A stretch of 58,967 bases of DNA from Candidatus Woesearchaeota archaeon. Its GTDB lineage: Archaea; Nanobdellota; Nanobdellia; Pacearchaeales; GW2011-AR1. The stretch lies in contig CAZNOS010000001.1 of assembly GCA_964574775.1 (NCBI GenBank), positions 1 through 58,967 of the forward strand, written 5' to 3'. A program made the translations under genes and the position numbers. The notes beneath the pieces are model-generated. The model was not told where the DNA came from and made no database searches. It saw only the letters and a list, made by a program, of their open reading frames with translations. Below, piece after piece: positions 3,070 to 46,699 of this stretch (within the stretch, counting starts at the first letter, position 1; the number at the start of each line of letters is the position of its first letter).

Positions 3070-3089
3070 TTGAACATATCAAAAACTAT

Positions 3090-5706: not shown

Positions 5707-5754
5707 TAGAATACTAAAAAGAAATCTATTTATAAATCTTTCTTTGATTCACTA

Positions 5755-8171: not shown

Positions 8172-8217
8172 ACGAAACAAACCACTTTTAACATTATAAA
8201 TCTTGCCAAACAATCAA

Positions 8218-9270
8218 CTAAACGTTCTGGAATTCCTGTATGCCGTATTTTTCAAATCCATCTTTACTATAATCAGTTAATACCAATCCCCCAACCGCCA
8301 CAGAATCCTTTAGCGGACCCGAAACAAAAAATCCTTGCAACCAATCTCCAAAATCTCCAACAACACTAAGAACCGAATAACCAAGTCCAACACCAGCTAT
8401 ATTTCCTGCGCTACCTCCTCCAGCAAGAACCAATACTCCCTTTCCAAGAATAGAGGACGCCCCAGGAACAAAAATACAAACAGCCGCTATAGCAGCACCT
8501 GCTGTTGTGCCAGCAATAACCTTTCCTAGATTTGTATTTGTAGTTTCAATATAAGTTATAGCTTTAACTCCAGTCAGATTCAAGAAATCACTATTTTTCA
8601 AATCGGCACTTGTCTCAATCGGAACAAGAGATCCATACAACTGAGCAGCCGAATCTCCCTCGGGAGTATTTCTAAGATAATCCATATAACTATAATTTTG
8701 AGTCGGAACCTTATGCGTCGTCATATACTGAACTAATCCTGTAATATTTTTTATATCATCAGATGGATCATCCTTATCTTTACCAAAAAGAATACTATCA
8801 TCAAATTCTATCTTATCACATATAATTCCTTTAGAAACATCCGCATCTGTAATTTTCCATGCCCTAGAAAAAATCTGCAACTTACCCTCTCCAAACATAT
8901 TCCAACAATCAGCCATTTCTCTAGCTAAAAACATTCTTATCTGTTCTTTCTGTTCAATAACAGTCGTGGCCGACAACCTTTGTGTTTCATATGTTTTCCC
9001 GATACCTGTACAATTCCCCTTACCGGAAGCCTTAGTCGTAAGACAAATCACTCTAGACTTACACCGAACAGAAACAAGATCTTTCGCAGGAACATCTCCA
9101 CCAGGAAGTATTGCCTTAAGCAAAATTGATTCTTTACATGCCGCTCTATCTATAGTTTGTTGAAATGGGAAAAAAACAAAGATAAGCACGAAAACAGCTA
9201 ACGTAATAACTGCCAAAATTATACTGACAACAAACCAGTTTACATCTCCTCTTTTATTAAAAATAAACAT
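8218..9270 (-). CDS. Prepilin-like protein, cluster member F, with Gly-rich hydrophobic C-terminal region
   Basis: ATG at 9270 gives MFIFNKRGDVNWFVVSIILAVITLAVFVLIF. C-terminal segment AGTTAGAAIAAVCIFVPGASSILGKGVLVLAGGGSAGNIAGVGLG. Confidence 0.7.
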   Translation of the reverse strand: MFIFNKRGDVNWFVVSIILAVITLAVFVLIFVFFPFQQTIDRAACKESILLKAILPGGDVPAKDLVSVRCKSRVICLTTKASGKGNCTGIGKTYETQRLSATTVIEQKEQIRMFLAREMADCWNMFGEGKLQIFSRAWKITDADVSKGIICDKIEFDDSILFGKDKDDPSDDIKNITGLVQYMTTHKVPTQNYSYMDYLRNTPEGDSAAQLYGSLVPIETSADLKNSDFLNLTGVKAITYIETTNTNLGKVIAGTTAGAAIAAVCIFVPGASSILGKGVLVLAGGGSAGNIAGVGLGYSVLSVVGDFGDWLQGFFVSGPLKDSVAVGGLVLTDYSKDGFEKYGIQEFQNV

Positions 9271-9303
9271 AATCAAAATACAAAAACCTTCTTTTTATAT
9301 TTA

Positions 9304-9417
9304 ACTAAGAAAGATTCGTCAGAAACTTAATTACGTAAACAACTGCCAATATTAAAATTCCAATTAGAATCGCTATTGAAATATCCTCAACCGTATTACT
9401 GCCCGTATCATCTGCCA
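9304..9417 (-). CDS. Small (37 aa) single-TM protein inside the prepilin-like operon (absent from the ORF track)
   Basis: Hand translation gives MADDTGSNTVEDISIAILIGILILAVVYVIKFLTNLS*. It fills the gap between members H and F on the same strand. Confidence 0.45.
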
Positions 9418-9463
9418 TAAAAAAATAACTTAAACCACATTAATAAATGTTATTAGAAATCAC

Positions 9464-10732
9464 TCAACATGTATGTTCAAAATTTTTAGAAAAAATGAGA
9501 TTACCAGACAAATCTACAACATCAATTTTTATTATTCTCTTCTGACCATCACTACCATGTGAACAAATGAACTCACTTACGCCCAAAAAGTTTAAAGCTG
9601 GACTGGTTCTAAAAATAGCACGATTTAACGTAGTCAATTGTTTATTATTAGAATCATAAATAGACGTCTTCGCATTAAATTCCACATCACCACAAGATTC
9701 CTCAAAAGAAACGACATAAGATAATGGAGCAGTCTCTGTAATATCCGATATTTTACAATCAGAAATTTCATTAATCTCTAAACCACTCGAATCAAAAACA
9801 TTCGATACCCCATTCTGAAAAGAAGCATACTCCCAAATAAAACCATATTTTATTTTATATTTTCCAGAAACAATCTTATCCTTCGGATAAACACATGAAA
9901 GATTTAAAACTCCACCTGAAACATAGTTCATACTAATCTTTTTTTCATACTTTATACCTAAATTAGAAAATCTACAAGAAACACCCTGCACTACGAAATC
10001 ATCATCACGCAATAAGTCAAAAATTACCACCTTTAAAAGAGAAAAATCACAATTACTAAACCGACTCGTTATATTAACACGGATATCATCCCCTATTATC
10101 TCAGAAGCAGCACGAACATCCTCCAAACTACATCCCGCATTTTGAGAATAAGTTTTATACGCTAAATCATTAAGATACATAAAATAATTATCATTCGTCT
10201 TTCTTACAAAAACACTTCTTGGAACCGGACTCACATGAATAAAACACATATCCGCTAAAATAACAGTTTCAAATATTTTCGGATTATAACGTGCAGGAAA
10301 CCATTCTTTATACCAAACTCTATCTCCCTCATCTAATGCCTCCCAAATCTCCTCAGATAAACTAAGACACGGCGTCCCATCGTGATCATAATCAATTGGC
10401 CTGTCCAAATCTACACAAGCCTGATTATCCGCACAACTCATCTCCTTAAAATTGGCTGGAGAACATAAGCAAAATTTCTTTTCATCAAACATGAACACCC
10501 AATCTTTTGGACTTTCAATAACAAACTCCTTAATTTCGTCAGTCTTCATTTCGGAAAATCCGTCGGATAAAACACGCAACGTTCCCTTAGCCTGCTCAAC
10601 TTGTAAATTCGTAGTAACCATTTTTATAAGAGCAACAAACAGCAATCCAATTACAATCAAAACACCTATTGCTAAAACAGTTTTCACTATTTCCTCAGTC
10701 GTAATATCTCCTCTCTTGTTCCCAAAACTCAT
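9464..10732 (-). CDS. Prepilin-like Cys-rich protein, cluster member H (first gene of the 8-gene unit)
   Basis: N-terminus MSFGNKRGDITTEEIVKTVLAIGVLIVIGLLFVALI. Multiple Cys (FCLCSPANFKEMSCADNQACVDLD...). Confidence 0.7.
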   Translation of the reverse strand: MSFGNKRGDITTEEIVKTVLAIGVLIVIGLLFVALIKMVTTNLQVEQAKGTLRVLSDGFSEMKTDEIKEFVIESPKDWVFMFDEKKFCLCSPANFKEMSCADNQACVDLDRPIDYDHDGTPCLSLSEEIWEALDEGDRVWYKEWFPARYNPKIFETVILADMCFIHVSPVPRSVFVRKTNDNYFMYLNDLAYKTYSQNAGCSLEDVRAASEIIGDDIRVNITSRFSNCDFSLLKVVIFDLLRDDDFVVQGVSCRFSNLGIKYEKKISMNYVSGGVLNLSCVYPKDKIVSGKYKIKYGFIWEYASFQNGVSNVFDSSGLEINEISDCKISDITETAPLSYVVSFEESCGDVEFNAKTSIYDSNNKQLTTLNRAIFRTSPALNFLGVSEFICSHGSDGQKRIIKIDVVDLSGNLIFSKNFEHTC

Positions 10733-10814
10733 ATTAATTAAAAAAAATCATTCTTAATAAACATTACCAATCAATCGCCATAATATTTAAATAAAAAAGA
10801 CGGCATAAAAAATA

Positions 10815-12083
10815 ATGTCATTGGAAAAAATCTTGAAGACTGGAAGAAATCTGCTTATGGCCACCTTTTTGTCTGCCTCACTGACGAGCTTATCCCCAGC
10901 ACAAAATCCACCAGAAGAAGCCATGATACCCATTCCCGTAGATCAGTCTCTTTCGTGGTTCCGTCCAATTAACGGAGTTTTAACTTGCAAAAATAAAAGC
11001 AACACAACTTCACCATCAGCACAATTTGCCTCTCAATATACCGTTACAAATACATTTTATCTAACTGGAAAAACGACAGAAGATGGTTGTTTAAACGTAG
11101 GTTTTTTTAGCGCAGACCCAAGAAAAAAACCAGAAAAAACACACTACAGAATAGATTATGCGAATTCCAAACTCTACATAATGTGTTCACCAAACCTATC
11201 AATTGATTCTAATACACAATATGCAGAAGAACTCACGCTAACCGATAAACTTGCATCCACCAAACTAGTTCCAAAAGAAGAAGCCAAGGGATTTTGGATT
11301 CGGGCAGAACAAAGGGTTTTAGAAACATTAGAAAATTACGATCCAAGCAGAAAATTTTTAGAAGTATACACATTAGGAACAGCAACCGATTATTGCTTTT
11401 CCGAATTAATAAAAAATCACGCCATTGCCATGAACACCACCGTAGGAGAAAGAATGAAAAATGAAATAGACGATAGAAATGCAATAGGCACGATTCAAAT
11501 TCCTTTTCATTCTAAAGAAAAAAATGTTTTATTTCGCAACGAATTTGGAAGAAAGTTTAGAATATTCTTAGGTGCTCAAAATCCAACCACACCAGTCCGA
11601 GTTTTATATCATATAGAAACAGAATTTGACGACGGAACATCTAGTGCAAGAGGAACGCTCGAAGCTTTCACGGAAGAATTTCCAGCATTCACAATACCGA
11701 AAGAAAATCCTCCATCAGAACAAAAACCGTCAACACAAAAATGGCCAACAGGAATTTGGATAAAAGAACCACGAACGGACAAAACAGTAACTCCGGAAAA
11801 ACTCGAATCGCAAGAACTATATCAAGCCGGTTATTGTATAGATAACGACGGGAATCTATATCAAATATATTCATCTAGAAGATTTCCCGCATTCACAGAA
11901 ACAAGACAAGATGGAACCATCGCCGTATATCATAAAGACGTATCTAACGGAGTAAAAATCACAGAAAGAAATAATAGTTCGCTAGAAATACTTAGGCCAC
12001 TAAACGTAGACACAATGGAACAAACAACTACTGACACATCTACAGGAACAACAATAAGAAGAAACATATTCAAAAGAAAATAA
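10815..12083 (+). CDS. Secreted hypothetical protein on the opposite strand, splitting the prepilin-like cluster
   Basis: Signal-like N-terminus LLMATFLSASLTSLSPAQNPPEE. Its composition differs from the neighbouring genes (more Pro/Arg/Thr). Confidence 0.65.
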   Translation: MSLEKILKTGRNLLMATFLSASLTSLSPAQNPPEEAMIPIPVDQSLSWFRPINGVLTCKNKSNTTSPSAQFASQYTVTNTFYLTGKTTEDGCLNVGFFSADPRKKPEKTHYRIDYANSKLYIMCSPNLSIDSNTQYAEELTLTDKLASTKLVPKEEAKGFWIRAEQRVLETLENYDPSRKFLEVYTLGTATDYCFSELIKNHAIAMNTTVGERMKNEIDDRNAIGTIQIPFHSKEKNVLFRNEFGRKFRIFLGAQNPTTPVRVLYHIETEFDDGTSSARGTLEAFTEEFPAFTIPKENPPSEQKPSTQKWPTGIWIKEPRTDKTVTPEKLESQELYQAGYCIDNDGNLYQIYSSRRFPAFTETRQDGTIAVYHKDVSNGVKITERNNSSLEILRPLNVDTMEQTTTDTSTGTTIRRNIFKRK

Positions 12084-12088
12084 TTAAA

Positions 12089-12853
12089 TTATTTCGTAGA
12101 AATTTTTAATGCACTTGCTAATTTTGCATAATTATCCACCAATAGGTTGGTTTGTATATTTGCCTGTAAATCATCATTTATATACAAAACTGGATTTTGA
12201 AATCTCTTTAATAAAATTAAATCTGGCGTATTATAGCTCCTAGAATTATCTGGGCCCTGACCACCAACCCAAGTAGTATCGCAAGGTAAAGAAACTTGTT
12301 GGTTTGCATCTAGCGTCGTTTTGGATAAGAAATATTTTCCAACATCATCTGGAGAATAAGCAAAATAAACAACGCCATTTAAAGAAATGGCTCCAACAAT
12401 TACATCCTTAGGGAACCAAAAAGAAGTCTCTTTTAGGTATAGCACAATATGATTTTTATATTTCTTTAAATATATCGCATTCTCATAACCATTTCCCCAA
12501 AAACTTGCATCCACCTTACACAGCCTTAAGCTCAATATAGCATTCTCAAAAATATACACTGACTCCGTATTTGCACCCTTAGTGGTATTAACTATTATAT
12601 AATTAAATACGGGTGGAGCGATTTGCCCACTATCACCAACCACATCCGCCAACTCATCACTTCCCTCTATAACTCCATAGGATTGATTTGCCTCCCCTTT
12701 CATATCGGGCAAAATATTTTGTAACATCGTTTTAAATTGAGTCGGAAAAATAATAAAATAAACAGCCATAGCAATAATCGCCACGCTAATTACTAGGGCC
12801 ACGACAGTGCCCGCCGTCATATCTCCTTTTTTATTTTGAACAATCTTTCTCAT
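12089..12853 (-). CDS. Prepilin-like protein, cluster member I
   Basis: Start set at the internal ATG 12853 (MRKIVQNKKGDMTAGTVVALVISVAIIAMAVYFIIF). The TAAAATG junction links it to the small upstream ORF 12855..13013. Confidence 0.7.
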   Translation of the reverse strand: MRKIVQNKKGDMTAGTVVALVISVAIIAMAVYFIIFPTQFKTMLQNILPDMKGEANQSYGVIEGSDELADVVGDSGQIAPPVFNYIIVNTTKGANTESVYIFENAILSLRLCKVDASFWGNGYENAIYLKKYKNHIVLYLKETSFWFPKDVIVGAISLNGVVYFAYSPDDVGKYFLSKTTLDANQQVSLPCDTTWVGGQGPDNSRSYNTPDLILLKRFQNPVLYINDDLQANIQTNLLVDNYAKLASALKISTK

Positions 12854-12854
12854 T

Positions 12855-13013
12855 TTACGAACCAAACCTAAACCAGTCAAAGAAACTATGCAACCACCCC
12901 GTTGCCTGTTCTTTAAAAAAAAGTAACATAACCACGCCAACCCCAACTAAAGCTATAATGGCCAAAATAAGTCCTTGTACAAAATCAAATTCCGAACCTC
13001 TCTTATTCACCAT
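12855..13013 (-). CDS. Small (52 aa) prepilin-like protein, cluster member J (absent from the ORF track)
   Basis: Hand translation gives MVNKRGSEFDFVQGLILAIIALVGVGVVMLLFFKEQATGWLHSFFDWFRFGS*. Same N-K-R-G-S plus helix motif as the other members. Its stop lies 1 nt before the ATG of member I. Confidence 0.55.
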   Translation of the reverse strand: MVNKRGSEFDFVQGLILAIIALVGVGVVMLLFFKEQATGWLHSFFDWFRFGS

Positions 13014-13083
13014 AAATATAAACCCCCTTTATCCTTAATAAATCTTTACAAATCTTTATATAACCAGGCTCACTTTAACTAAT

Positions 13084-13605
13084 ATGGATAAAATTAAGGC
13101 AACATTCATATCCGAAAAAATATTCTCTAACTCGAAAGAGGCGTTCGGTATGTTTGAATCTCAAAGGTTTGGTGAAAGAACTGGCGAAAAAATTTTCTAC
13201 ACCCTCCAAGAAACACTTTTCTTAGTGGAAACAGGAAAAATGGAAATAATAGACTCTAAAGATAAAAAAATACCCGAAAGAGAAATCTTAAAAAAATTCG
13301 CCAAAATAGATAAAAAATTCAAAACAAAATACCTAGTCTTCAGAGATTTAAGAAAGAAAGGATTAATTGTAAAAACCGCACTCAAATTTGGAGCAGAATT
13401 CAGAGTTTATGAAAAAGGAAAATCTATCGGAGAAGATCACGCAAAATGGATTCTATTCCCAGTCTCACAAAACGAACAACTTACATGGCAAGATTTTTCT
13501 GCAAAAAACAGAATTGCGCACTCCACAAACAAAAAATTATTAATTGCAGTTGTAGATGAAGAAAATCAAGTCTCATATTACGAAGTAAATTGGTTGAAAA
13601 TATAA
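13084..13605 (+). CDS. endA: tRNA-splicing endonuclease
   Basis: YLVFRDLRKKGLIVKTALKFGAEFRVYEKG...HAKWILFPV...IAHSTNKKLLIAVVD is typical of the archaeal EndA catalytic domain. Confidence 0.85.
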   Translation: MDKIKATFISEKIFSNSKEAFGMFESQRFGERTGEKIFYTLQETLFLVETGKMEIIDSKDKKIPEREILKKFAKIDKKFKTKYLVFRDLRKKGLIVKTALKFGAEFRVYEKGKSIGEDHAKWILFPVSQNEQLTWQDFSAKNRIAHSTNKKLLIAVVDEENQVSYYEVNWLKI

Positions 13606-13606
13606 A

Positions 13607-14614
13607 ATGGGGAAAATAGACGTATCCGAAGTAAAAAAGAAAATACTTGCATTTCTAGAGCATAATGGACCAAGTCTACCAATCCCAATAGCAAAACACA
13701 TTCTTCTTCAGCCAATGTTTGCATCCGCCATTTTATCCGAACTACTCAATGAAAAAAGAGTAAAGACAAGTTCTATGAAAATCGGTTCATCTCCACTTTA
13801 TTTAATACCCGGCCAAGAAGCAAAACTTGAGTCATTCACGGAAAATCTTACGGGAGTAGAAAAAGAAGCTTACATCAAACTAAAAGACAATAAATTTTTA
13901 GAAGATCAAACCCAAGAGCCAAGAATTCGTGTTGCAATGAGAGGACTAAAAGATTTTGCAATCCCAATCCAGCTAAACAACAAGCTCTACTGGAAATATC
14001 TTACTTCATCAACAGAAAAAATAAAAGAATCCATGGAAGACGAGGGAGAAATTGCAATTGGAGAAAGAGTAGTTGGTCAAAAAATATGGGAAGACATCAA
14101 AAAAGAACAACCCAAAATAGAACCAATTGAAGAAAAAACAAAACAGGAAAAAATAGTACACATCCTAAAAACAGAAGCCGAAAACACTTCTAAGAATATA
14201 GAAAACATCTTCGAAGAAGAAAAAATAATTATAATAAAAGAAGAGAATATTGAACCATCGCCAGAAAAAGCAATAGAATCAAAACCCCAAAAAATAAAAA
14301 AATTAACAGAAAAAGACATCTTCTTAGAGCAGGTAAAGCACATTCTAGAATCAAAAAATATTGAACTTTTAGAAATAATTCAATTTGACAAAAAACAAGT
14401 AATAGCAAAAGCCAGAGTTAACGTAGACAAAACCTGCATCTTATTTTTTATAGATAAAAAACGCCCCGACGAAAAAGATATGGTTAGAGCCTATAAGAAA
14501 TCGCAAGAATATAAGTTACCCTACTACATCGTAACACAAACGCAACCACAGAAAAAACTAAAGGAAACAGCAGATTTATACAAGGCACTACTTGGTTTCG
14601 GAAGCATTGAATAA
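13607..14614 (+). CDS. Hypothetical protein with N-terminal winged-helix-like domain and K/E-rich linker
   Basis: KKKILAFLEHNGPSLPIPIAKHILLQPMFASAILSELLNEKRVKTSSMKIGSSPLYLIPG looks like a wHTH. No confident family assignment. Confidence 0.6.
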   Translation: MGKIDVSEVKKKILAFLEHNGPSLPIPIAKHILLQPMFASAILSELLNEKRVKTSSMKIGSSPLYLIPGQEAKLESFTENLTGVEKEAYIKLKDNKFLEDQTQEPRIRVAMRGLKDFAIPIQLNNKLYWKYLTSSTEKIKESMEDEGEIAIGERVVGQKIWEDIKKEQPKIEPIEEKTKQEKIVHILKTEAENTSKNIENIFEEEKIIIIKEENIEPSPEKAIESKPQKIKKLTEKDIFLEQVKHILESKNIELLEIIQFDKKQVIAKARVNVDKTCILFFIDKKRPDEKDMVRAYKKSQEYKLPYYIVTQTQPQKKLKETADLYKALLGFGSIE

Positions 14615-14657
14615 TCAAATAACAAACCTTTTAAACCCCTAAAATTAGCTATATTCC

Positions 14658-14858
14658 ATGGGACGAATAAAAACAAAGCAAGTTAAAAGAGCATCATTAT
14701 CCTTAGTTGAAAAAGCTCCAGAGATGTTTGATTCGACATTCGATCATAATAAAAAAGTTCTAGGAAGAGAAATGCCTAGTAAGAAAGTAAGAAACATGAT
14801 TGCAGGATATATCACGAGAATCAAGAGGAATACAAAAAAAATAATCCAGGACGAGTAA
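14658..14858 (+). CDS. rps17e: 30S ribosomal protein S17e (eS17)
   Basis: MGRIKTKQVKRASLSLVEKAPEMFDSTFDHNKKVL...NMIAGYITRIKRN. Confidence 0.9.
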   Translation: MGRIKTKQVKRASLSLVEKAPEMFDSTFDHNKKVLGREMPSKKVRNMIAGYITRIKRNTKKIIQDE

Positions 14859-14865
14859 TTCTAAC

Positions 14866-15156
14866 ATGGAAGACAATACTTCTGACAATTCGATTTTTAT
14901 CGGTAGCAAACCCTTTATGAATTATGTTACTGCCGTAGTAATGCAATTTACGACACAGAAAGCAAGTGAGGTAAAATTAATATCAAGAGGAAAATTTATT
15001 TCCAAAGCAGTTGATGTTGCAGAAGTAGCAAGAAAAAAATTCTTAAAAGAACTTAATATAAAAGTAAAAGAAGTAAAAATGGACAGCGAAGAGTTCGATT
15101 CAAAAGAAGGCAAACACGTTACTGTTTCTACGCTGGATATCGTTTTATCAAAGTAG
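14866..15156 (+). CDS. albA: Alba DNA/RNA-binding protein
   Basis: IFIGSKPFMNYVTAVVMQF...EVKLISRGKFISKAVDVAEVARKKF...VSTLDIVLSK. Confidence 0.85.
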   Translation: MEDNTSDNSIFIGSKPFMNYVTAVVMQFTTQKASEVKLISRGKFISKAVDVAEVARKKFLKELNIKVKEVKMDSEEFDSKEGKHVTVSTLDIVLSK

Positions 15157-15158
15157 GA

Positions 15159-15566
15159 TTACAATCTATTGTAATATCCAACCAAGTCTTCTTCAGATCT
15201 TGCTATATCATTAAGTGAATTTGTTCTGTAATTACAGAGATCCTTGAATTCTCTTACTGATGCAAATTTAATATCAACTCCTTCTGGACCACTTCTTGCT
15301 GGGCCATATCCTTCTTTAAACACATAAGTTGGTTTTAAAGGAAAAGCCTTAGACGCAGCTTGATAAATTACATCCGGACTATTATCTCCATCCAAATCCG
15401 TTACTTGCCATTGCCTAATTTCATGTGCACGCACAAGTGCTCTATCGCTTGGCATTGACGCTGAAGTATAAATTAAACCGGCTGTTACACTAGCAATAAT
15501 TGTGCCCATAATTCCAAAACGCACCTCGGCTGCATTTTCCTTCAATATTTGTTTTAATGTTCTCAT
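15159..15566 (-). CDS. Membrane-anchored hypothetical protein (DxDGD Ca-binding-like loop)
   Basis: TM segment FGIMGTIIASVTAGLIYT and motif TDLDGDNSPDVIY. Strong SD (GGAGGT) 7 nt upstream of the ATG. Arg-rich composition. Confidence 0.6.
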   Translation of the reverse strand: MRTLKQILKENAAEVRFGIMGTIIASVTAGLIYTSASMPSDRALVRAHEIRQWQVTDLDGDNSPDVIYQAASKAFPLKPTYVFKEGYGPARSGPEGVDIKFASVREFKDLCNYRTNSLNDIARSEEDLVGYYNRL

Positions 15567-15605
15567 TTTTTTAACCTCCTTACATTACGTAAAGATAATA
15601 ATATC

Positions 15606-16409
15606 ATGAAAGCATTAGATTTAAATATTAGGTCCCCCTTATGGATACCTATGGAAACAAGTATTCTAAGAGAAATTGGACTAACAGAATCTGAATCAAA
15701 AGTCTATTTAGCACTTTTAGAACTCGGAGATTCTACGCGAGGAGATATTGTAAAAAAATCACAAATCGCAGGATCAAAATTATACGAAATCATAAATAAG
15801 CTACAAGAAAAAGGACTTGTCTCCGTTTATGCTCAAAACAAAATACAACATTTTAAATCAACCAATCCAAAACAAATATTAAACTATCTAGAAGAGAAAA
15901 GACATAGAATAACTCAAACAGAAAAAGATGCTAAATTATTAATTCCGCAACTACTCTCGCTGTATAGTTCATCCAAAGAAGACCAAGAGGTTGAATTATT
16001 AAACGGACTCAAGGGACTGCAAATTATCTTCGAAGAACAGATAGAAATTTTAAACAAAGACGAAACATGCTATGTTATAGGTGGAACAAGGGGGAGCGAT
16101 GAGCAAACAATACTAGACTTTTTTGAAAAAATCCATATGCTGAGAGAAGACAAAAAGATTCATACAAAAATGCTTTTTAACGAAAGACAAAAAGAAAACA
16201 CAAAAAAAATTTACTCTTCAAAAAAATATCCTCTAACAAAAACAAAATTCATCTCCTCAACCTCTCCAGTAGCGATTAACATCTATAAGAACAGGACAAT
16301 TATAATCATCTTCGGAAAGAAAATAAGCGCAATCCAAATAAAATCCGAGGAAGTTGCCAATAGCTTCCTAGAGTATTTCAATCTGCTTTGGGGTAATGCA
16401 AAAGACTAA
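15606..16409 (+). CDS. TrmB-family transcriptional regulator
   Basis: LREIGLTESESKVYLALLELGDSTRGDIVKKSQIAGSKLYEIINKLQEKGLVS is a TrmB-type wHTH. The true start may be the internal MET at 15651. Confidence 0.8.
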   Translation: MKALDLNIRSPLWIPMETSILREIGLTESESKVYLALLELGDSTRGDIVKKSQIAGSKLYEIINKLQEKGLVSVYAQNKIQHFKSTNPKQILNYLEEKRHRITQTEKDAKLLIPQLLSLYSSSKEDQEVELLNGLKGLQIIFEEQIEILNKDETCYVIGGTRGSDEQTILDFFEKIHMLREDKKIHTKMLFNERQKENTKKIYSSKKYPLTKTKFISSTSPVAINIYKNRTIIIIFGKKISAIQIKSEEVANSFLEYFNLLWGNAKD

Positions 16410-40747: not shown

Positions 40748-41170
40748 CTAAATAGCAGCCGATGCCACCGCAGATATTTTTTTTACTCTCTTCGCCATAA
40801 GCTTCTCTAGAGATCTATTGTTCAATACAACCGTTGTTCTAACAACACCACTATTATCAACCATCACTAAAACGTCCTTATAATCTCTTTTTTCTCCTGG
40901 TTTTCTTACATGTATAATTCTCTGTCCGATTCCACCGCCATCAGGATTAACATCGGCTATGCCTCTCTTAAGGAAACATTTTACCACATGACCATTACGA
41001 TCGCTAGGTTGAATCTCGTATTCTTCATCTGGATTAGCTATCACATAATTAACTATAGTCGGAACAAGATGCCTCTCTCTCATTCTACCTTCAGCATGCT
41101 GTGTATATTCCCTCCCACTAATTGTTATACTATCCACGCCTTTCATTCCATTATCATCAATTATTGCCAT
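40748..41170 (-). CDS. Hypothetical protein with DUF4258-like (toxin-fold) N-terminal motif
   Basis: ITISGREYTQHAEGRMRERHLVPTIVNYVIANPD resembles the DUF4258 pattern T.HA..RM.ER.I....V..VI.NPD. Start set at the ATG at 41170. Confidence 0.45.
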   Translation of the reverse strand: MAIIDDNGMKGVDSITISGREYTQHAEGRMRERHLVPTIVNYVIANPDEEYEIQPSDRNGHVVKCFLKRGIADVNPDGGGIGQRIIHVRKPGEKRDYKDVLVMVDNSGVVRTTVVLNNRSLEKLMAKRVKKISAVASAAI

Positions 41171-41218
41171 AAAAAGAAACACGCAGACTTATTTAAAAAT
41201 ATTACTACAGATATAAAA

Positions 41219-41311
41219 AGCCTGCAGAGGGAGTCAAACCCCCGACCCCAAGTTTTTTTGAATTTTCTTGTTTATACAAAACTCGTGCTCTATCAACTGA
41301 GCTATGCAGGC
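41219..41311 (-). tRNA. tRNA-Thr (TGT) with a 20-nt intron after position 37
   Basis: Manual fold of the minus strand: GCCTGCA TA GCTC AGTTGATA GAGC A CGAGT TTTGTA [taaacaagaaaattcaaaaa] A ACTTG GGGTC GGGGG TTTGACT CCCTC TGCAGGC T. The intron is 41255-41274. Confidence 0.8.
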
Positions 41312-41360: not shown

Positions 41361-42182
41361 TTACAGCTCATCTGCAGTACTTCTTTCGTATTCTGATTCT
41401 CCACGCTCTTCTTTCTCCCTAGCTCTTCTCATAGATGCACTAGATGATGCCCCGACGCCGGTGACTGCCTCGGCTGCCCTTATTAATTTTTCCCTTGCCT
41501 CTATCTCATCTTCACGCCCCTTCTTCCTAGCGCTCTTTATTCTATACAACTTCAAAAGATCAACGGCCTTTTTAGAAAATCTAGAAAGCAAAATAAAAAC
41601 AACCGCCGCTACCGACCAAAGAAGTAGCTGTACATATGGATTCAAAACTAACTCTATCAGCGTAATCAACTTATTTGCCAAAAAAACTGAAGCACTCTGG
41701 AAAAGCTGAACTAATATAAAAACCACGAAAACCAACACATAAACTATAACATTAGTTGAACCAGAAAATAATTCCAAATCCCTAAGCGCCTGGTAAAAAG
41801 TATAAAAATATTTTATCAAAGTACACCATATGACAAAAACTAAAACAAATAACAACGAAAGCTGTGGAGTCATTCCTACTAAAAATTCAACAATCGGATC
41901 ACTATACGGCGAAACTTTTCTATACCCACCTATAACCTGTTTAAAAAAGGGTTTTGTCTCCAGCAATTTCCCCCACTCTTTCTTTAAATATTCCTTTCTC
42001 ACCTCATCCCTCGTTAAAAAATTCTCTGCATCTTGTATATCTTGTTCAGTTTGTTGAATACTACCCTCGATCTGATTTGCCTTATTTTCAATAGACGAAT
42101 CCACACTCGCATAAACAAAAGAAATAAATAATATTCCAAATAAGACTAAAGAAACAAAAACCAATCCTCTTTCTAACTTCAT
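41361..42182 (-). CDS. Polytopic membrane protein with charged C-terminal tail (paralog family member 1, divergent)
   Basis: Signal or anchor LVFVSLVLFGILFISFVYA. Shares the VEFLVG motif with the family. C-terminal tail KKGREDEIEAREKLIRAAE... Confidence 0.65.
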   Translation of the reverse strand: MKLERGLVFVSLVLFGILFISFVYASVDSSIENKANQIEGSIQQTEQDIQDAENFLTRDEVRKEYLKKEWGKLLETKPFFKQVIGGYRKVSPYSDPIVEFLVGMTPQLSLLFVLVFVIWCTLIKYFYTFYQALRDLELFSGSTNVIVYVLVFVVFILVQLFQSASVFLANKLITLIELVLNPYVQLLLWSVAAVVFILLSRFSKKAVDLLKLYRIKSARKKGREDEIEAREKLIRAAEAVTGVGASSSASMRRAREKEERGESEYERSTADEL

Positions 42183-42264
42183 AAAGAATACAAACAAAAA
42201 GGATTTATAATCCTAACGAAAAAGAAATATTTAAATACACAATCAAACTATTCATATAAAGAAC

Positions 42265-42546
42265 ATGGTGAATGCAATTTTAGGCTACGTCTTATCTGGA
42301 TTAGGTATAGTTAGCGTCGCACTTTCATCCGAAAAAACAAGGTCCATAATCCCAATTGATTTTATTGCAAATTTAAGCTCTAAAACTTTTGTTTCAATAG
42401 GCATCATCTTAGTTGCAGCGGGAATTGTTATAATGTTTTTATCTGGAAAACAATCTGGCAGCAACGTAAGACAATCTGCCGAGGAAGTTCCAATATATGA
42501 GGGCGAAGGTAAACATAGAAAGATAGTTGCTTACAGAAAAGGATAA
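42265..42546 (+). CDS. Small 2-TM membrane protein
   Basis: 93 aa with helices ILGYVLSGLGIVSVALS and FVSIGIILVAAGIVIMFL. Confidence 0.5.
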   Translation: MVNAILGYVLSGLGIVSVALSSEKTRSIIPIDFIANLSSKTFVSIGIILVAAGIVIMFLSGKQSGSNVRQSAEEVPIYEGEGKHRKIVAYRKG

Positions 42547-42573
42547 AAAAATAATTTTTATTTTTATATTAAA

Positions 42574-43347
42574 TTAATAAGTATGCTTAAACAGGGCTTT
42601 TTGCTGCTTCTTTAATTCTATCATCCTATTGTTATAATAATCCTGATCTATAACCTTATTTTGCAAATCAATCGCTAATTCATGCATTCTTCTCTTTATC
42701 GCAACCTCTGCATCCTGTAATGTACTTTTACCGGACGCCTTAACCTTATTCCACGCCATAGTCCGCGCAATCGTACCATCTAAAAGCAAGAATAACAGAG
42801 AAACCAACGCTGTCCAAATATAAACCTGGCCATAAAACTGATTCTCCGCAGTTGTATATAATCCCAAATAAACACAGCCGAATAATATCCATCCAATTTT
42901 TCTCACACCCGGGCTATTTGGCGCAATACCCATTAAGAAAAAGAAATAAATAACAAACGGCAAGAAGGCAGTCATTGCTATTCCAAAAACTTGATAAGAC
43001 ATTAAAATCGTATTCATCCACTCGAAATTAATATAACGGACGGAAAGTAACGGAACCACAAGGGACAACACAACTACCGCTGGTTTTTGATCCTTGAAAA
43101 ATGGCGCCTTAAATAGAGCAACGAATGTTATAGAAAATATAATTAAGAAAACTAAAAATCTTTCAAATAACAACTGACCCGTATAATCAAAGCCACCTAA
43201 AAAAAACTGTGCAAGTGGCTGAATAGATCTCGCTGCGTTATCGATAGAGTATCCCAAATCAAAATAAGCGAAAACTCCGCTCGATAAAAAAATTGAAGAA
43301 ACTAATAATAATCCAAAAAATAAAACCACCTTTTTAGTATCAACCAT
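42574..43347 (-). CDS. Polytopic membrane protein with coiled-coil tail (paralog family member 2)
   Basis: Family motifs QFFLGG, LLSVRYINFEW, LPFVIYFFF, VYIWTALVSLLFLLLDGTI. Confidence 0.7.
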   Translation of the reverse strand: MVDTKKVVLFFGLLLVSSIFLSSGVFAYFDLGYSIDNAARSIQPLAQFFLGGFDYTGQLLFERFLVFLIIFSITFVALFKAPFFKDQKPAVVVLSLVVPLLSVRYINFEWMNTILMSYQVFGIAMTAFLPFVIYFFFLMGIAPNSPGVRKIGWILFGCVYLGLYTTAENQFYGQVYIWTALVSLLFLLLDGTIARTMAWNKVKASGKSTLQDAEVAIKRRMHELAIDLQNKVIDQDYYNNRMIELKKQQKALFKHTY

Positions 43348-43381
43348 GTAAAATTAAGTTATTAGATATTTATAAAGATTA

Positions 43382-44314
43382 TCATGGAGCATCGATAATA
43401 GCTGACAACTCAGACATTCTCTTAGTTACCTTTGCATATTCTGCCGCATACCCTGCATATTCTGGTCTTCCAGCGGTCAATTCCATTTGCGCTTTAAGAT
43501 AATCAAATCTTATGTGTAACTTCTTCCACTCTGTCTGAGCCGCTTCTTTTTTATAATTTCTTTTCCTTTTTTCACCGCCAATTTTCTTTTTAGTTGCCTC
43601 AGCCGCTTTCTGACCAATTAAGACCATAAATAATGCAGCAAGAGCTGTCCACAAATAAATTTCATAATATGTGTCTCCTGCAGTTGCAGTTGCTATAGCA
43701 CCTGCCCCGACTGTTCTGCTATACCATAAATACAAAAAGATAAGACCAAAAAAGACCCAAGCAATCTTCTTTTGAGTTTCAGATGAAAATTTTTCAACTA
43801 AAAAATAATATAACACAAATGGTAATCCAGCGGAAATGGCAATCCCTAGAGTAGAATATGGTAACAAGATTGTAATCAACCACGCAGCACTTAAAAATCT
43901 AACAGACAACAACGAAATGGAAATGGAAATAACCCAAACGGTCCAAGAATGCTCCGAATTATTAAAAAACGGTATAGACTTAACGATAATAAAAACAATA
44001 CTAAACACAATTATTAAAATTAATAGAGCCATGGAAAAAAAATCATCCATTTTATTAGTGTCGCCCTTCACGTCGTAACCAACCAAATATTCTAAAACTG
44101 GCTGGATATAGTCACTAAAAGTTGTTTTAACAGAATCCTTAAGCGCGTTCCCAGTTATTACATTTCCAGTAACACCATCATATACAAAAAACAAAACAGC
44201 TAATAAAACGACAATACCCAATGCCCACCAAATCCAAGACGGAACAGACTGAGATTTTTTCTTCTGAAAACTAACTTTTTTATCCACCTTCTTCGCACTC
44301 TTCTTTTTTGGCAT
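43382..44314 (-). CDS. Polytopic membrane protein with coiled-coil tail (paralog family member 3)
   Basis: Family motifs LEYLVG, LLSVRFLSAAW, LPFVLYYFL, IYLWTALAALFMVLIG. Basic N-terminal extension. Confidence 0.7.
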   Translation of the reverse strand: MPKKKSAKKVDKKVSFQKKKSQSVPSWIWWALGIVVLLAVLFFVYDGVTGNVITGNALKDSVKTTFSDYIQPVLEYLVGYDVKGDTNKMDDFFSMALLILIIVFSIVFIIVKSIPFFNNSEHSWTVWVISISISLLSVRFLSAAWLITILLPYSTLGIAISAGLPFVLYYFLVEKFSSETQKKIAWVFFGLIFLYLWYSRTVGAGAIATATAGDTYYEIYLWTALAALFMVLIGQKAAEATKKKIGGEKRKRNYKKEAAQTEWKKLHIRFDYLKAQMELTAGRPEYAGYAAEYAKVTKRMSELSAIIDAP

Positions 44315-44413
44315 ACTGTACAGATAATATTTAGGTTTATAAATATTTCCCTACTTTCAAATTAATAAAACGCAAAAAGAAAGAAATAAAAGCACGAGAA
44401 CAATAATACAAAT

Positions 44414-44977
44414 ATGCAAAATAAAAAATTCATACTATCCATCTTATGCCTGCTTATTGTAAATATTTTTTCAGTATATGCGACATCTGAAAACACATCA
44501 GTTCAAACACTTCAGATTTTAGAGCAAAAAATTTCAAATCCAAATTTATCCATTCTAGGAATACATGAAGAAATTACCCTAAAAAATTTAATAGTCGTTG
44601 GATGTCTACTAATAATGGTTATAGCAATGCTCTATGACTTAATGAGCACCGCTGGTTTTATAAAAAATAATTTAATTAATTTATCAATCGCAATTATCAT
44701 ATCTTTAATTGGAACTTATGGCGGAGTTTTATATAATATAACAAAATACCTATCTTCGATATCAGACACGATATTTGCATCTTCTAAATCTGGCGCACTC
44801 GGATTAATTTTAGTTTTGGTGATAGCTATAACAATATTTATCGTACTAAAATTCTTTATGAAATTTATCAGAAAAGATATCGCCAAATCTAAAGAAGAAG
44901 AAAGAACGAATAAACTAGAAACACTGAGAAAACTCCAAGACATAGAGTATACTAGTAGACCTAAAAGATCACAATAA
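44414..44977 (+). CDS. Membrane protein with signal peptide and charged C-terminal tail
   Basis: Signal ILSILCLLIVNIFSVYA, three further helices and tail KDIAKSKEEERTNKLETLRKLQ. Similar architecture to the neighbouring family, but homology is not evident. Confidence 0.6.
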   Translation: MQNKKFILSILCLLIVNIFSVYATSENTSVQTLQILEQKISNPNLSILGIHEEITLKNLIVVGCLLIMVIAMLYDLMSTAGFIKNNLINLSIAIIISLIGTYGGVLYNITKYLSSISDTIFASSKSGALGLILVLVIAITIFIVLKFFMKFIRKDIAKSKEEERTNKLETLRKLQDIEYTSRPKRSQ

Positions 44978-45120
44978 TTAAAACACCTTATGAGAAAATC
45001 GACAAGCCAGAATAGCAATATTCACATCATCTCCCCTAAGCTCATCAACAATTTCATCAAATACGAATAAATAAAAACTAGTCTACAAAAAATAAAGCTT
45101 ACACATCTAAAAATCAATAA

Positions 45121-45156
45121 AATAAAAAAAGAAAAATCCCCAAAATAAAATGGGGA
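45121..45156 (-). terminator. Hairpin plus T-run terminator downstream of 45160..46002
   Basis: The minus strand reads TCCCCA-ttttattt-TGGGGA followed by tttttcttttttt. Confidence 0.5.
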
Positions 45157-45159
45157 AAA

Positions 45160-46002
45160 TTAACTACTTCTCTTAGATTCGTATTCAGCAATATCCTTTT
45201 CGATTTGACGCTTCTCTGAAATCAACTTAACTCTTTCATCGTTAGCAGATTTCTCTACTCTACCAGAAAGATTAGCCAATCTTGCATCAATTTCATCAAG
45301 TCTATTCTTCATTTTTATAACCGCAGCATTGTCTCCAGCAGCTATATCATTCTTTAAATTCTTCTTTCTAAAGAACCCTTGTATTGTACCATCCAACAAG
45401 AAGAATACTATACAAACGGCAACAATTATTAAGTAAATCCAATAGAAATTAGTCCAATTTCCTTTTGAAGTAGACCAATTATATGCCAAAAGAGACACCA
45501 TTATGACTGCATAAACAATCCATAAAAGTTTTCTCACAGCACTCGGTGCCTTAAGAATCAATGTAGCTACAACTATAAATGGAACAATTAAGAATAGTGC
45601 ACCAACAAGTCCTTCAGAACCCAATGTAAAGGCCCTCAATGCATTAACTTCGATAAATCTAACTCCAATTAGCGCGACAATCACTGCAATACCCCAGTCT
45701 GTCCAAGCTCTTTCGCCGAAAATTTTCATCGGAGAAAGCACCCCTGCAATAACTAAAACTGTAAGCAAGAAAGCCATCAAAGCAACAAATCCACCATCTC
45801 CAGTACTTTTCTCTGTGCTTCCAGCACTATCAAAAAGGAAATGTGTGATGGGTGAAGCAACGTTAACAACTCCTCCAAGAAAGGCCTCAATGCCATCCCC
45901 AGAAGCAGCGACCCATTTAGGCTCCGCACTAACTGTGCTCATTACAAATGTAGAAACTAAAAGTAATGCAAAAAATATAACAAAACTCTTTTTATAATTC
46001 AT
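45160..46002 (-). CDS. Polytopic membrane protein with coiled-coil tail (paralog family member 4)
   Basis: Family motifs EAFLGG, LIGVRFIEVNAL, VPFIVVATL, FYWIYLIIVAVCIVFFLLDGTI. SD AGGAGGT 8 nt upstream of the ATG. Confidence 0.7.
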   Translation of the reverse strand: MNYKKSFVIFFALLLVSTFVMSTVSAEPKWVAASGDGIEAFLGGVVNVASPITHFLFDSAGSTEKSTGDGGFVALMAFLLTVLVIAGVLSPMKIFGERAWTDWGIAVIVALIGVRFIEVNALRAFTLGSEGLVGALFLIVPFIVVATLILKAPSAVRKLLWIVYAVIMVSLLAYNWSTSKGNWTNFYWIYLIIVAVCIVFFLLDGTIQGFFRKKNLKNDIAAGDNAAVIKMKNRLDEIDARLANLSGRVEKSANDERVKLISEKRQIEKDIAEYESKRSS

Positions 46003-46144
46003 ATTTTAAAACCTCCTTTCATTTTAGATAATTTAATTATCATTTAAAACCGAAGAATACGACCTTTATAAAATTTGTCGTAACGAATTTTATATTGTAA
46101 AACTCTGAAGTTTTGTCTTATAAAAATTGTTGTTTTTAAACTAC

Positions 46145-46699
46145 CTAGTCTTCTTCCAAAATTTCAATCTTTTTATCTTGGACTAAAATCTCAACAATTT
46201 GTTTATTTAAATTAGCAATTTCGCCCTTATTGAATGGTCCAATACTTTCCCCTTCTAAATCCAAAAACTCCTCAACTCTATCGTTAAACTTAACAAGCCT
46301 AAATTTCGAATCAACCCGACCACCAGACATAGAATCACTCAAATTCTTATCTGCCTTTTCCAGGCTCTTAACTATATCCTCAAATAACTCCTTTTCAAAA
46401 TCTAACAAATTCTCAAAATCTTTTTTACTAATTCCAGTTTCAGAAGCAACAAAAGCCAAATTCAATATCTTCTTTCTTCTTCTCAGTAGAAGCTCCTTAT
46501 ATAGGGACATAGCATTTTCAAGTTTCTTTTTACTCTTCAAAACTACGTCCGAAAACATATCATCATCTTTATCAGAGAATTTCTTCTTCTCAGAAAAATA
46601 CTCAGCTGCCTCAGGCAAAAATGTTTTCTTCAATAACTGTAAATCATCACTATATCTCTCCTTTCGGAGTGCCTCATAAAGATCATTATACGCAATCAT
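46145..46699 (-). CDS. GINS subunit (Gins51/Gins15-type), probable
   Basis: The helical A-domain (LYEALRKERYSDDLQLL..., LLRRRKKILNLA) and C-terminal B-domain (VKFNDRVEEFLDLEGESIGPFNKGEIANLNKQIVEILV) match the archaeal GINS pattern. Confidence 0.55.
   Translation of the reverse strand: MIAYNDLYEALRKERYSDDLQLLKKTFLPEAAEYFSEKKKFSDKDDDMFSDVVLKSKKKLENAMSLYKELLLRRRKKILNLAFVASETGISKKDFENLLDFEKELFEDIVKSLEKADKNLSDSMSGGRVDSKFRLVKFNDRVEEFLDLEGESIGPFNKGEIANLNKQIVEILVQDKKIEILEED

Follow-up and report, generated by a model that had tools for sequence, protein, structure and literature searches.

Paralogous membrane proteins with basic cytoplasmic tails form a conserved gene set in Pacearchaeota-type archaea and are related to a small protein trio beside a FlaI/CpaF-type ATPase

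Pacearchaeota and Woesearchaeota carry lineage-specific protein-family modules, among them modules 222 and 98 of Castelle et al. 2021 (PMC8204110). These consist largely of membrane-bound or extracellular families with no functional prediction, in the same lineages as the genes studied here; they are, however, bulk presence/absence lists that describe neither a module of genes nor paralogy, topology or a tie to an ATPase locus (PMC8204110). Another point of reference is CdpA (HVO_0739), the membrane anchor of the haloarchaeal division ring; "CdpA-like" proteins with other numbers of transmembrane (TM) helices are reported across archaea (PMC12126565). We present here an analysis of six membrane protein genes, A, s1, B, C, s2 and D, from a Candidatus Woesearchaeota archaeon (GenBank assembly GCA_964574775.1). 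They lie on contig CAZNOS010000001.1, of which positions 1 to 58,967 are called the window below.

Table 1. Genes and candidate signals of the six-gene region (window positions)
Feature	Position	Strand	Description
A	41361..42182	-	273 aa; signal peptide, ~90-aa helical ectodomain, three TM helices, basic tail
TATA-like boxes, divergent A/s1 intergenic region	42203..42236	none	ATTTATAA (42203-42210) upstream of A, at a distance of 21-28 nt; ATTTAAAT (42229-42236) upstream of s1, at 29-36 nt; both found by pattern matching alone, in a genome of 34% GC
s1	42265..42546	+	93 aa; two TM helices, cytoplasmic C-terminal motif; convergent with a B-type gene in most loci
B	42574..43347	-	257 aa; cleavable signal peptide, ecto-helix, five TM helices, 65-aa basic helical tail
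TTTATAAA	43369..43376	-	22-29 nt upstream of B start, inside the 34-nt C-B gap
C	43382..44314	-	310 aa; Lys-rich cytoplasmic N-extension, uncleaved anchor helix, ecto-segment, five TM helices, tail
TTTATAAA	44336..44343	-	22-29 nt upstream of C start, divergent C/s2 intergenic region
s2	44414..44977	+	187 aa; signal peptide, 3-4 TM helices, short charged tail
Terminator-like hairpin and T-run	45127..45156	-	TCCCCATTTTATTTTGGGGA (45137-45156), then TTTTTCTTTT; begins 4 nt past D stop
D	45160..46002	-	280 aa; signal peptide, ecto-segment, five TM helices, 74-aa tail
GGAGG and TTTAAAT	46012..46048	-	GGAGG (46012-46016) and TTTAAAT (46042-46048), 10-14 and 40-46 nt upstream of D start

All six open reading frames (ORFs) that a preliminary description had placed in the window were found as placed, and the family of paralogous polytopic membrane proteins with charged helical tails that it proposed is real, as judged by profile scores, an AlphaFold model and tail composition. 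The homology claimed for B, C and D holds in pairwise blastp (B-C, E = 6.6e-21; B-D, 3e-10; C-D, 1e-10), and a profile built solely from members in other genomes ranks the three at the top of the genome's 1,814 ORFs (1.5e-74, 9e-57 and 2.5e-56). A had been called a more distant fourth. It has no significant direct match to B, C or D (blastp, 0.03-0.26), and the B/C/D profile reaches it at 3.5e-3 among the 1,814 ORFs, confined to the signal peptide and ectodomain; its membership is supported transitively, through s2. Among the genome's ORFs, s2 is matched by the A profile (1.7e-12) and by the B/C/D profile (6e-4), and the s2 profile matches D (1e-6), colinearly over residues 4-148. By these scores s2, previously described as a small interspersed membrane protein, is a truncated fifth family member that bridges A and B/C/D, and A is a probable truncated distant member, related to B/C/D solely through s2. 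Profiles from other genomes match A at 2e-39 and s1 at 4e-23; no other ORF of the genome scores with the s1 profile. s1 is unrelated to the other five proteins and is a conserved partner in most loci. About 1,900 clusters were found at 50% identity, every one with the same full-length architecture. As far as the search reached, the family is restricted to DPANN archaea.

The AlphaFold model of B (pLDDT 79) has a signal-peptide helix, an ecto-helix, five TM helices and three tail helices. Across 90 homologues, the -1 Ala of the signal-peptidase site is conserved in 88%, the Arg of VR[YF] in 77%, the Pro of LPF in 100%, the Tyr before the last TM helix in 91% and the Asp of DGT in 79%. The motifs earlier listed as shared were located, except that EAFLGG of D (residues 39-44) is out of register and the homologous stretch is PITHFLF (51-57). 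B and D have all the family columns (G51, K/R63, VR104[YF], LP130F, R149-K150..W153, Y176 and D190-G-T), and A and s2 retain just the part covering the ecto-motif and TM1-TM2. C is without the DGT motif, and its N-extension recurs in the orthologue at locus L005. The ectodomain is acidic. The tail is basic, with a median length of 64 aa and 21% K+R, and it is helical, as first described; its supposed coiled-coil character holds only in part, with moderate heptad periodicity (mean z 1.1; about 2.4 in C and D; -0.3 in B). In an alignment of A orthologues, the ectodomain motifs YL(K/Q)(K/Q)xW and SPY..P..EF.VG are conserved, and the ATG at 42182 is the right start of A because the orthologues begin MKK... 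The C-terminal motif of s1, EVPIYxG...K.IVGYR, is almost invariant in its alignment. We also considered B, C and D as archaeal type IV pilins with class III signal peptides, defined by a [KR]-G/A/S cleavage site that precedes the one hydrophobic helix at the N-terminus, with a globular domain outside the membrane after it; this was rejected on their five further TM helices and on the conserved Ala, which fits signal peptidase I. The genome's true pilins are on contig 57.

Candidate TATA-like boxes precede A, s1, B and C, and GGAGG and TTTAAAT precede D (Table 1), in agreement with the individual promoters or Shine-Dalgarno sequences reported earlier; the box in the C-B gap is a candidate for B's own promoter. 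A terminator had been proposed after D (45121-45156), and a hairpin and T-run do lie directly past its stop codon. The region has 3 terminator-like sites against a shuffled expectation of 2.6, which is not above it, and position alone supports the D hairpin.

The core of B, C and D is homologous to small-2, which lies in the middle of three tandem genes for small 5-TM proteins (small-1, small-2 and small-3). Comparison with small-2 by hhalign gave 97.7% for B, 97.3% for C and 97.0% for D (96.8-97.7% across comparisons), and the alignment with B covers 170 columns, the whole core (E = 2e-12). In a reciprocal profile search, B, D and C rank 4th, 7th and 8th of the 1,814 ORFs (3.6e-6 to 4.8e-3). 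The three tandem genes (occasionally two detected) recur in 26 genomes, and in all 21 complete trios each of the three positions corresponds to its own orthologous group. In at least 13 families of the class their neighbours are p240, p106, a T2SSE ATPase of the FlaI/CpaF type and a large polytopic protein. No T2SSF/FlaJ signature is present in the 730-aa partner of the ATPase. This genome has its own small trio beside the ATPase locus, on contig 11, and B, C and D are on contig 1. The trio locus also holds a prepilin peptidase and a KaiC/FlaH-like ATPase. We found no publication describing the small trio. These comparisons show that the 5-TM core derives from small-2, whose trio is found beside the FlaI/CpaF-type ATPase across the Woese-/Pacearchaeota class. 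In the Pacearchaeota-type genomes examined, the FEN1-Trm5 site is occupied by a member with an acquired signal peptide and charged tail, and in one subclade this tail-bearing member expanded to B, C, D, A and s2.

Searches against known families agree with the label of an uncharacterised family. For the six window proteins, every Pfam match fell below the curated cut-off (best E = 0.008); NCBIfam had no match above cut-off, and PHROGs had no match. PDB sequences gave just coiled-coil noise (E ≥ 0.17), Foldseek against PDB folds gave best E values of 0.66 for B and 9 for small-2 with TM-scores around 0.15, and BFVD had no match (best E = 0.64). Membership in a known transporter or protease family, which would have spoken against the label, was tested directly, and no curated family or structure matched. 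The B/C/D family has no known relatives, and the small 5-TM trio is itself unannotated.

Module conservation was examined at 36 loci from metagenome-assembled genomes labelled Pacearchaeota, Woesearchaeota or "Nanoarchaeota". Approximately 27 have at least two B/C/D-type genes together with s1, which was itself found in 28, and A orthologues are present in 26. The usual order is A< D< C> B> s1<, between FEN1 and Trm5. In the window the module is flanked by tRNA-Tyr/NDK and Gins51 and has the full A, D, C, B, s1 set with the D/A pair relocated, as in loci L005 and L025. Because the same set sits at FEN1-Trm5 elsewhere and between tRNA-Tyr/NDK and Gins51 here, the module moves as a unit. The distribution of s2 is sporadic, in only some genomes. 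In the tree, D of the window falls in a basal D clade, and B and C form separate clades, each with one orthologue per genome; D-clade genes adjoin A in most genomes. Stable order and one-orthologue clades are the signature of a fixed multi-subunit set, and the earlier suggestion of a currently diversifying family does not fit a composition and order that are usually kept over the 36 loci. The family did expand, with 1 to 6 copies at the syntenic site between deeper lineages, but the expansion is old. One or two tail-bearing copies occur without A or s1 in family f24 (L015, L016) and in genomes G031 and G249, so a homo-oligomer is viable and the extra subunits are not obligatory. Neighbourhood is weaker evidence than usual here, because in these tiny genomes conserved synteny extends to housekeeping genes with no relation to one another, such as PolB, FEN1 and Trm5.

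The explanation that we favour, tentatively and with rather less than even confidence, is that the six genes encode subunits of one hetero-oligomeric complex of the cytoplasmic membrane, a scaffold with docking tails rather than a transporter. B, C and D would be anciently diverged paralogues. In each, the N-terminus and a short acidic ecto-helix would lie outside, followed by a very hydrophobic core of five TM helices and, in the cytoplasm, a basic helical tail of ~65 aa. A and s2 would be truncated relatives retaining the ecto-motif and first TM helices, and s1 an unrelated 2-TM subunit whose invariant C-terminal peptide (EVPIYxG..IVGYR) would face the cytoplasm. We infer a membrane platform built from the three paralogues B, C and D, like that of the ancestral trio. 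This platform would serve as a scaffold or anchor to which a cytoplasmic partner docks through the tails and the s1 peptide; carriage of a solute seems less likely. In AlphaFold, monomers of B and of the small form reach pLDDT 78-79 with pTM of only 0.42-0.44, even with 118 sequences, and this combination weakly suggests helices that would pack fully only within an oligomer. The weakest step concerns the docked partner, which may belong to filament or cell-envelope machinery because of the analogy with the ancestral trio. As the B/C/D module never adjoins the ATPase locus in the genomes examined, and this genome keeps its small trio there, the link to filament machinery comes from paralogy alone.

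We regard as unlikely a hetero-oligomeric channel or carrier that imports solutes or lipids for biosynthesis-poor symbionts and relies on its C-terminal helices for assembly or gating, like CNG or KCNQ-type channels. A polytopic core followed by an assembly-type helical tail would suit such a protein, as would the conserved Arg (VR[YF]) and Asp (DGT) at opposite membrane boundaries and the invariant Pro that kinks the long TM3, and a genome of 0.83 Mb presumably requires uptake systems. The top Foldseek matches, all non-significant, are CNG and SthK channels with coiled-coil tails, but with E values of 0.66 or worse and TM-scores around 0.15, and neither Pfam nor NCBIfam gave a transporter or channel family match. 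Among the 90 homologues no charged residue is conserved deep in the TM helices and no acidic residue within them; the conserved basic residues are located at helix ends, and the mid-helix columns (S95, T126, T179) are merely weakly polar. Transport is mildly disfavoured because of this lack of deep conserved charge. The ancestral form, moreover, is tied to an assembly ATPase locus and does not lie beside substrate-binding or metabolic genes.

Similarly improbable, in our judgement, is a set of independent membrane anchors, in which each protein, as a monomer or homo-oligomer, would use its basic tail to tether a cytoplasmic partner of its own (part of the cytoskeleton or division apparatus, the nucleoid or the replisome), much as CdpA is described to do. 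Single-copy and two-copy lineages exist, the basic tails diverge strongly between B, C and D, and each gene apparently has its own TATA-like box; gene set and order are nevertheless kept in most loci examined and the ancestral form is also a three-gene set, both of which point to co-function. The module sits among replication genes, a neighbourhood that also includes unrelated genes such as Trm5 and a DsbA-like gene. The layout of CdpA (TM domain, cytoplasmic linker, small C-terminal domain) is similar, and PRC-barrel proteins act in archaeal division (PMC12126565). Six families (f1, f13, f31, f40, f42, f55) have a PRC-barrel gene immediately upstream of the small trio; in the other seven none was seen.

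The poorly conserved ectodomains and the copy number variation between lineages would fit an island, mobile or viral or acquired recently, that encodes fast-evolving surface proteins for host contact, but this reading is very improbable and already largely refuted by synteny and the tree. The GC content of the module is the same as elsewhere in the window, its chromosomal site is fixed and its genes are inherited vertically as orthologues; PHROGs and BFVD gave no matches, and only ~25 residues are exposed in B, C and D.

The proposed scaffold can be compared with several known systems. MotA/ExbB/TolQ stators are likewise oligomers of helical membrane proteins that have cytoplasmic helices and pair with a small subunit; they were rejected as relatives, with no Pfam or NCBIfam match, no conserved acidic TM residue in B/C/D or s1, and E. 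coli TolAQR at a Foldseek E of 5.4. The T2SSF proteins (FlaJ/PilC/TadB-TadC, PF00482) are polytopic membrane components of type IV filament loci, and TadB and TadC are a paralogous pair. They too were rejected: PF00482 is matched neither by the six window proteins (E ≤ 1) nor by the small forms (E ≤ 0.1 or E ≤ 0.01), and B/C/D differ in size and topology and have no cytoplasmic helical-bundle domain between TM helices. CdpA is similar in general layout: it begins with a polytopic TM domain and continues into a cytoplasmic extension, by which cytoplasmic proteins are tethered. It is described, however, with 4 TM helices and, after a long disordered linker, a small globular domain at the C-terminus, and no signal peptide is mentioned in that description (PMC12126565). 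Compared by described architecture alone, B/C/D would differ in having a signal peptide, then 5 TM helices and a helical basic tail. The small trio resembles B/C/D in its homologous 5-TM core, in being a set of three distinct paralogues and in the AlphaFold helix order (short N-helix, TM1, loop, TM2, tight turn, long TM3, TM4, TM5). Its members are 160-220 aa long, without signal peptide or tail, beside p240/p106/T2SSE, whereas B/C/D are 257-310 aa long, with a signal peptide or anchor and a basic tail of ~65 aa, and accompany A, s2 and s1. B, C and D all belong to the small-2 lineage, with no one-to-one match to the trio members. The homology of their 5-TM core to the ATPase-locus trio, seen in profile comparison, is new here.

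The Pacearchaeota and Woesearchaeota are uncultured archaea that occur abundantly and depend on hosts. Their genomes measure 0.5-1.5 Mb, and their lineage-specific proteins are mostly membrane proteins without predicted function. All six ORFs that the preliminary description reported in 41361-46002 are present, namely, the membrane-protein genes A, B, C, and D, a two-TM partner gene (s1), and a truncated family member (s2). This module spans about 4.6 kb, ~0.55% of the length of its host genome (826 kb, 77 contigs, 85% complete). The module's neighbors are housekeeping genes: L44e, S3Ae, NDK, a 144-aa orphan, and tRNA-Tyr on one flank and a Gins51-like gene, a ZIP transporter, and FtsY on the other. 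The orphan, a 144-aa ORF, separates ndk from the tRNA and matches nothing in NCBIfam at an E value of ≤0.1. The tRNA (anticodon GTA, called by ARAGORN) is 93 nt long, a length that implies an intron. The 184-aa protein directly upstream of D matches only Gins23 in NCBIfam (0.056), and its orthologue in the related locus L005 has a weak Gins51_C match; it is probably a diverged GINS subunit.

Coordinates of the module, its candidate signals, the ATPase locus, and related genes
Feature	Location	Coordinates	Strand	Basis or remark
144-aa ORF	window	40748-41182	-	
tRNA-Tyr	window	41219-41311	-	
A	window	41361-42182		
s1	window	42265-42546		
B	window	42574-43347		
C	window	43382-44314		
s2	window	44414-44977		
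D	window	45160-46002		
184-aa protein	window	46145-46699	-	
TTTATAAA	window	22-29 nt upstream of B and C starts		pattern match
A/T boxes	window	21-36 nt upstream of A and s1		pattern match
GGAGG	window	-10 to -14 of D		pattern match
Hairpin + T-run	window	starts 4 nt past stop of D		pattern match
TM helices	protein B	57-80, 88-105, 108-141, 146-166, 170-189		AlphaFold model
HerA/DUF87-type ATPase	L004	11110-12420	-	
~425-aa relative	L023	4091-5374	-	
~425-aa relative	L024	3910-5181	-	
PRC-barrel gene	contig 11 (L060)	5260-5595		window's genome
Small trio	contig 11 (L060)	5602-7580		
p240	contig 11 (L060)	7616-8266		
p106	contig 11 (L060)	8343-8801		
FlaI/CpaF-like ATPase	contig 11 (L060)	9055-11325		756 aa
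Polytopic protein	contig 11 (L060)	11659-13851		730 aa
Peptidase_A24	contig 11 (L060)	14020-14835		prepilin peptidase
KaiC/FlaH-like ATPase	contig 11 (L060)	14878-15660		
Pilin cluster	contig 57 (3,994 bp)	655-3994		window's genome

The homology claimed for B, C, and D was borne out by blastp, with E values of 6.6e-21 (B-C), 3e-10 (B-D), and 1e-10 (C-D). Profiles made solely from the members in other genomes recovered B at 1.5e-74, C at 9e-57, and D at 2.5e-56 among all 1,814 ORFs of the window's genome, and, as judged by sequence, the three are certainly homologues. A had been called a more distant fourth; it has no significant blastp match to B, C, or D but is linked to them through s2. Among the same ORFs, the A profile found s2 at 1.7e-12 and the s2 profile found D at 1e-6, colinear over residues 4-148; A and s2, homologous to each other by profile match, are therefore joined to B/C/D through s2. 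By the same kind of comparison, s1 is unrelated to the other five.

The motif strings first described for these proteins are real; in an alignment of 90 sequences they coincide with conserved columns, except that EAFLGG of D is out of register, PITHFLF being the homologous stretch. The conserved columns are P130 (100%), W153 (99%), K/R63 (94%), L65 (93%), Y176 (91%), R149/K150 (90-93%), R104 (77-79%), and D190 (79%). The AlphaFold model of B (pLDDT 79) consists of a signal-peptide helix, an ecto-helix at residues 31-50, five TM helices, and three tail helices. Ala at -1 of the signal-peptidase site is 88% conserved. With 1.4 K+R versus 3.9 D+E per sequence, the ecto-segment is acidic, and the tail, with 13.8 K+R per sequence, is basic, which fits a predicted N-out, C-in topology. 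C differs: like its L005 orthologue, it begins with a Lys-rich N-terminal extension and has an anchor that is not cleaved. Within the TM helices, none of the acidic residues is conserved, and the conserved basic residues sit at the helix ends. The tails have a median length of 64 aa and only moderate heptad periodicity (mean z of 1.1; about 2.4 in C and D; -0.3 in B). Relatives of ~425 aa from two other families (f26 and f70) have the same TM core but a helical, K/E/R-rich tail of ~200 aa that is highly charged, so the length of the tail varies widely across the superfamily. The peptide EVPIYxG..IVGYR of s1 is invariant. Promoter-, SD-, and terminator-like sites of the module are candidate signals found purely by pattern matching; the TTTATAAA copy of B lies inside the 34-nt C-B gap, and the region shows no enrichment of terminator-like sites (3 versus an expected 2.6).

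As the preliminary description held, the family is uncharacterized: nothing exceeds the curated cutoffs in Pfam, NCBIfam, or PHROGs. A profile search of PDB sequences returned only coiled-coil noise, on the tail. An exhaustive profile search collected 1,919 clusters at 50% identity (1,409 at an E value of ≤1e-10), all 200-340 aa long and matched over their full length, and all named database homologues are annotated "hypothetical protein." With Foldseek, the B model reached E values of at best 0.66 against PDB and 0.64 against BFVD, and the model of small-2, a related five-TM protein described below, had no PDB match (one entry at an E value of 9); neither model matched a known fold in PDB or BFVD. 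The family has no detectable relative among curated families or solved folds.

The module was compared across 36 loci (the window, L005, L012-L016, and the 29 named loci L025-L053); the related loci all come from MAGs labeled Pacearchaeota, Woesearchaeota, or "Nanoarchaeota." B/C/D-type genes are present in 36/36 loci, s1 in 28/36, and A in 26/36; s1 accompanies two or more B/C/D-type genes in about 27/36. The genes are usually arranged A< D<, C> B>, s1<, with s2 sporadic, and in L005 and L004 each window protein is matched by an orthologue of its own. The common context is PolB - FEN1 - module - Trm5 - HerA-like ATPase - DsbA-like - OB-fold - RFC, with flanking clusters named by matching sizes to Pfam hits in L004; these recurrent neighbors are of housekeeping type. 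The window's sublineage has the module between NDK and Gins51 instead, and the module therefore moves as a unit. In a maximum-likelihood tree, genes adjoining A form a basal D clade, B is separate from C, and the window's B, C, and D are placed beside their syntenic orthologues. The paralogy is old and stable, so the proposal of a currently diversifying family was not upheld. The HerA/DUF87-type ATPase (~437 aa, lacking TM helices) is located two or three genes away from the module in the common order and forms one cluster in 17 loci; inspection of two genomes showed no NurA-like gene next to it. It was set aside as a module partner because it is also present where the module is one gene.

Among 300 genomes sampled across the phylum, full-length matches occurred only in f1, the window's family, and f24, and many other families gave weak partial matches; outside the phylum, a pattern-limited scan covered species representatives. 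The f24 genomes have one or two B/C/D-type genes, without A or s1. Five f1 genomes at first seemed to be without the family, an absence later rejected. At the FEN1-Trm5 site, G031 and G249 each carry one diverged member, which combines a signal peptide and a TM core with a long charged tail and reaches 96.9% by hhalign in one genome and 85-89% in the second, and G241 carries A/s2-like genes; this site therefore holds the family in all these genomes, in 1 to 6 copies.

The weak partial matches represent a distinct small form of 157-220 aa with five TM helices, no signal peptide or tail, and the motif LQ.LG..D..LPFLLIF....A.L.K...FG; neither Pfam nor NCBIfam has a family for it. A profile of the small form that excluded the window's genome ranked B 4th (3.6e-6), D 7th (1.4e-3), and C 8th (4.8e-3) of its 1,814 ORFs, and the homology is reciprocal (hhalign, 96.8%). 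In 26 genomes (17 of 19 in one fetched set, five others, three f1 genomes, and the window's), the small form is encoded by tandem genes, three as a rule and occasionally two detected, next to p240 or a T2SSE ATPase. The three positions, small-1, -2, and -3, correspond to three orthologous groups in 21/21 complete trios, a partly circular result in that each profile contains its own members. The best match of B, C, and D alike is small-2 (hhalign, 97.7%, 97.3%, and 97.0%; for B, 170 aligned columns and an E value of 2e-12), which rejects a one-to-one pairing with the trio and therefore indicates an independent triplication of the small-2 lineage. The AlphaFold model of small-2 (118 sequences; pLDDT 78, pTM 0.42) has the same helix order as B. 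B/C/D and the small form constitute a new superfamily. One small-2 homologue (P0294) was deposited as "Methanococcoides sp. SA1" on a 134-kb contig, which could be mis-binned or a real occurrence outside DPANN; the other named matches are all from DPANN or unclassified archaea.

After the trio come p240 and p106, two convergent genes for cytoplasmic coiled-coil-like proteins; where the contig is long enough, a T2SSE ATPase of ~760 aa and a polytopic protein of ~700 aa come next, with one exception (L067). This cluster occurs in at least 13 families of the class (f1, f3, f5, f13, f20, f31, f40, f42, f44, f55, f69, f74, and f93), and f89 has the trio with p240 only. In the window's genome, the ATPase is nearest afGspE (2oap, 2e-29), then CpaF (5e-22) and FlaI (1e-18), and matches NCBIfam FlaI at 2e-38, below that family's cutoff. 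The 730-aa protein has no family match and, from its position, may be a FlaJ-like platform. No pilin gene was seen in 5260-15660 of this locus. A derivation of the B/C/D tails by fusion from p106 or p240 was rejected (hhalign, 13% and 6%). Elsewhere in the genome, contig 57 carries a classical archaeal pilin cluster of four tandem genes with class III signal peptides (e.g., MNSKKG/VSAVVATVLII...), followed by a second T2SSE ATPase cut by the contig end; this 4-kb contig held nothing informative on B/C/D.

The ancestral three-paralogue set is tied by neighborhood to a type IV filament-type ATPase locus, and the tail- and signal-peptide-bearing branch is derived; in a Pacearchaeota subclade it expanded to the A/B/C/D/s2 module, which comes with s1. 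B, C, and D would assemble as one membrane platform, probably together with A, s2, and s1, and the basic tails and the s1 peptide could serve as cytoplasmic docking elements. The module might otherwise be a channel or carrier, but a scaffold is the better fit for a hydrophobic core that has no conserved buried charges. B, C, and D may also be independent anchors analogous to CdpA (cf. PMC12126565); we take their stable paralogy to favor an assembly of several subunits or fixed sub-functions. A mobile surface-protein island is largely excluded by synteny and the tree, and the GC content of the window is 33-36% throughout.

For the membrane platform, paralogy hints at a filament-related or envelope-related partner. 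We consider it rather unlikely, though conceivable, that the trio and its derivatives B, C, and D, with A, s2, and s1, are an unrecognized core membrane component class of an archaeal type IV filament-like machine in Woese- and Pacearchaeota. They might then surround the ATPase and its polytopic partner, for example as a ring or alignment platform of three paralogues, and the Pacearchaeota module would be a second, specialized platform in host-dependent cells, its basic tails coupling the membrane to a cytoplasmic partner. The link of the B/C/D core to the trio beside the ATPase locus is the first testable handle on the family's function and suggests that a DPANN filament-type machine has a conserved component not described before. 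Should the proteins prove to be a membrane platform that serves surface filaments or anchors cytoplasmic structures, this would bear on envelope building and host attachment in ultra-small cells.

Our literature search found no description of the B/C/D family or the small five-TM trio. A census of archaeal type IV pilus loci from 2016 (PMC4858521), which predates the genomes analyzed here, mentions only unspecified extra membrane proteins, and Castelle et al. 2021 (PMC8204110) list Pacearchaeota/Woesearchaeota-specific, mostly membrane-bound families without function in bulk; new here are the small-form trio and its link to the ATPase locus.
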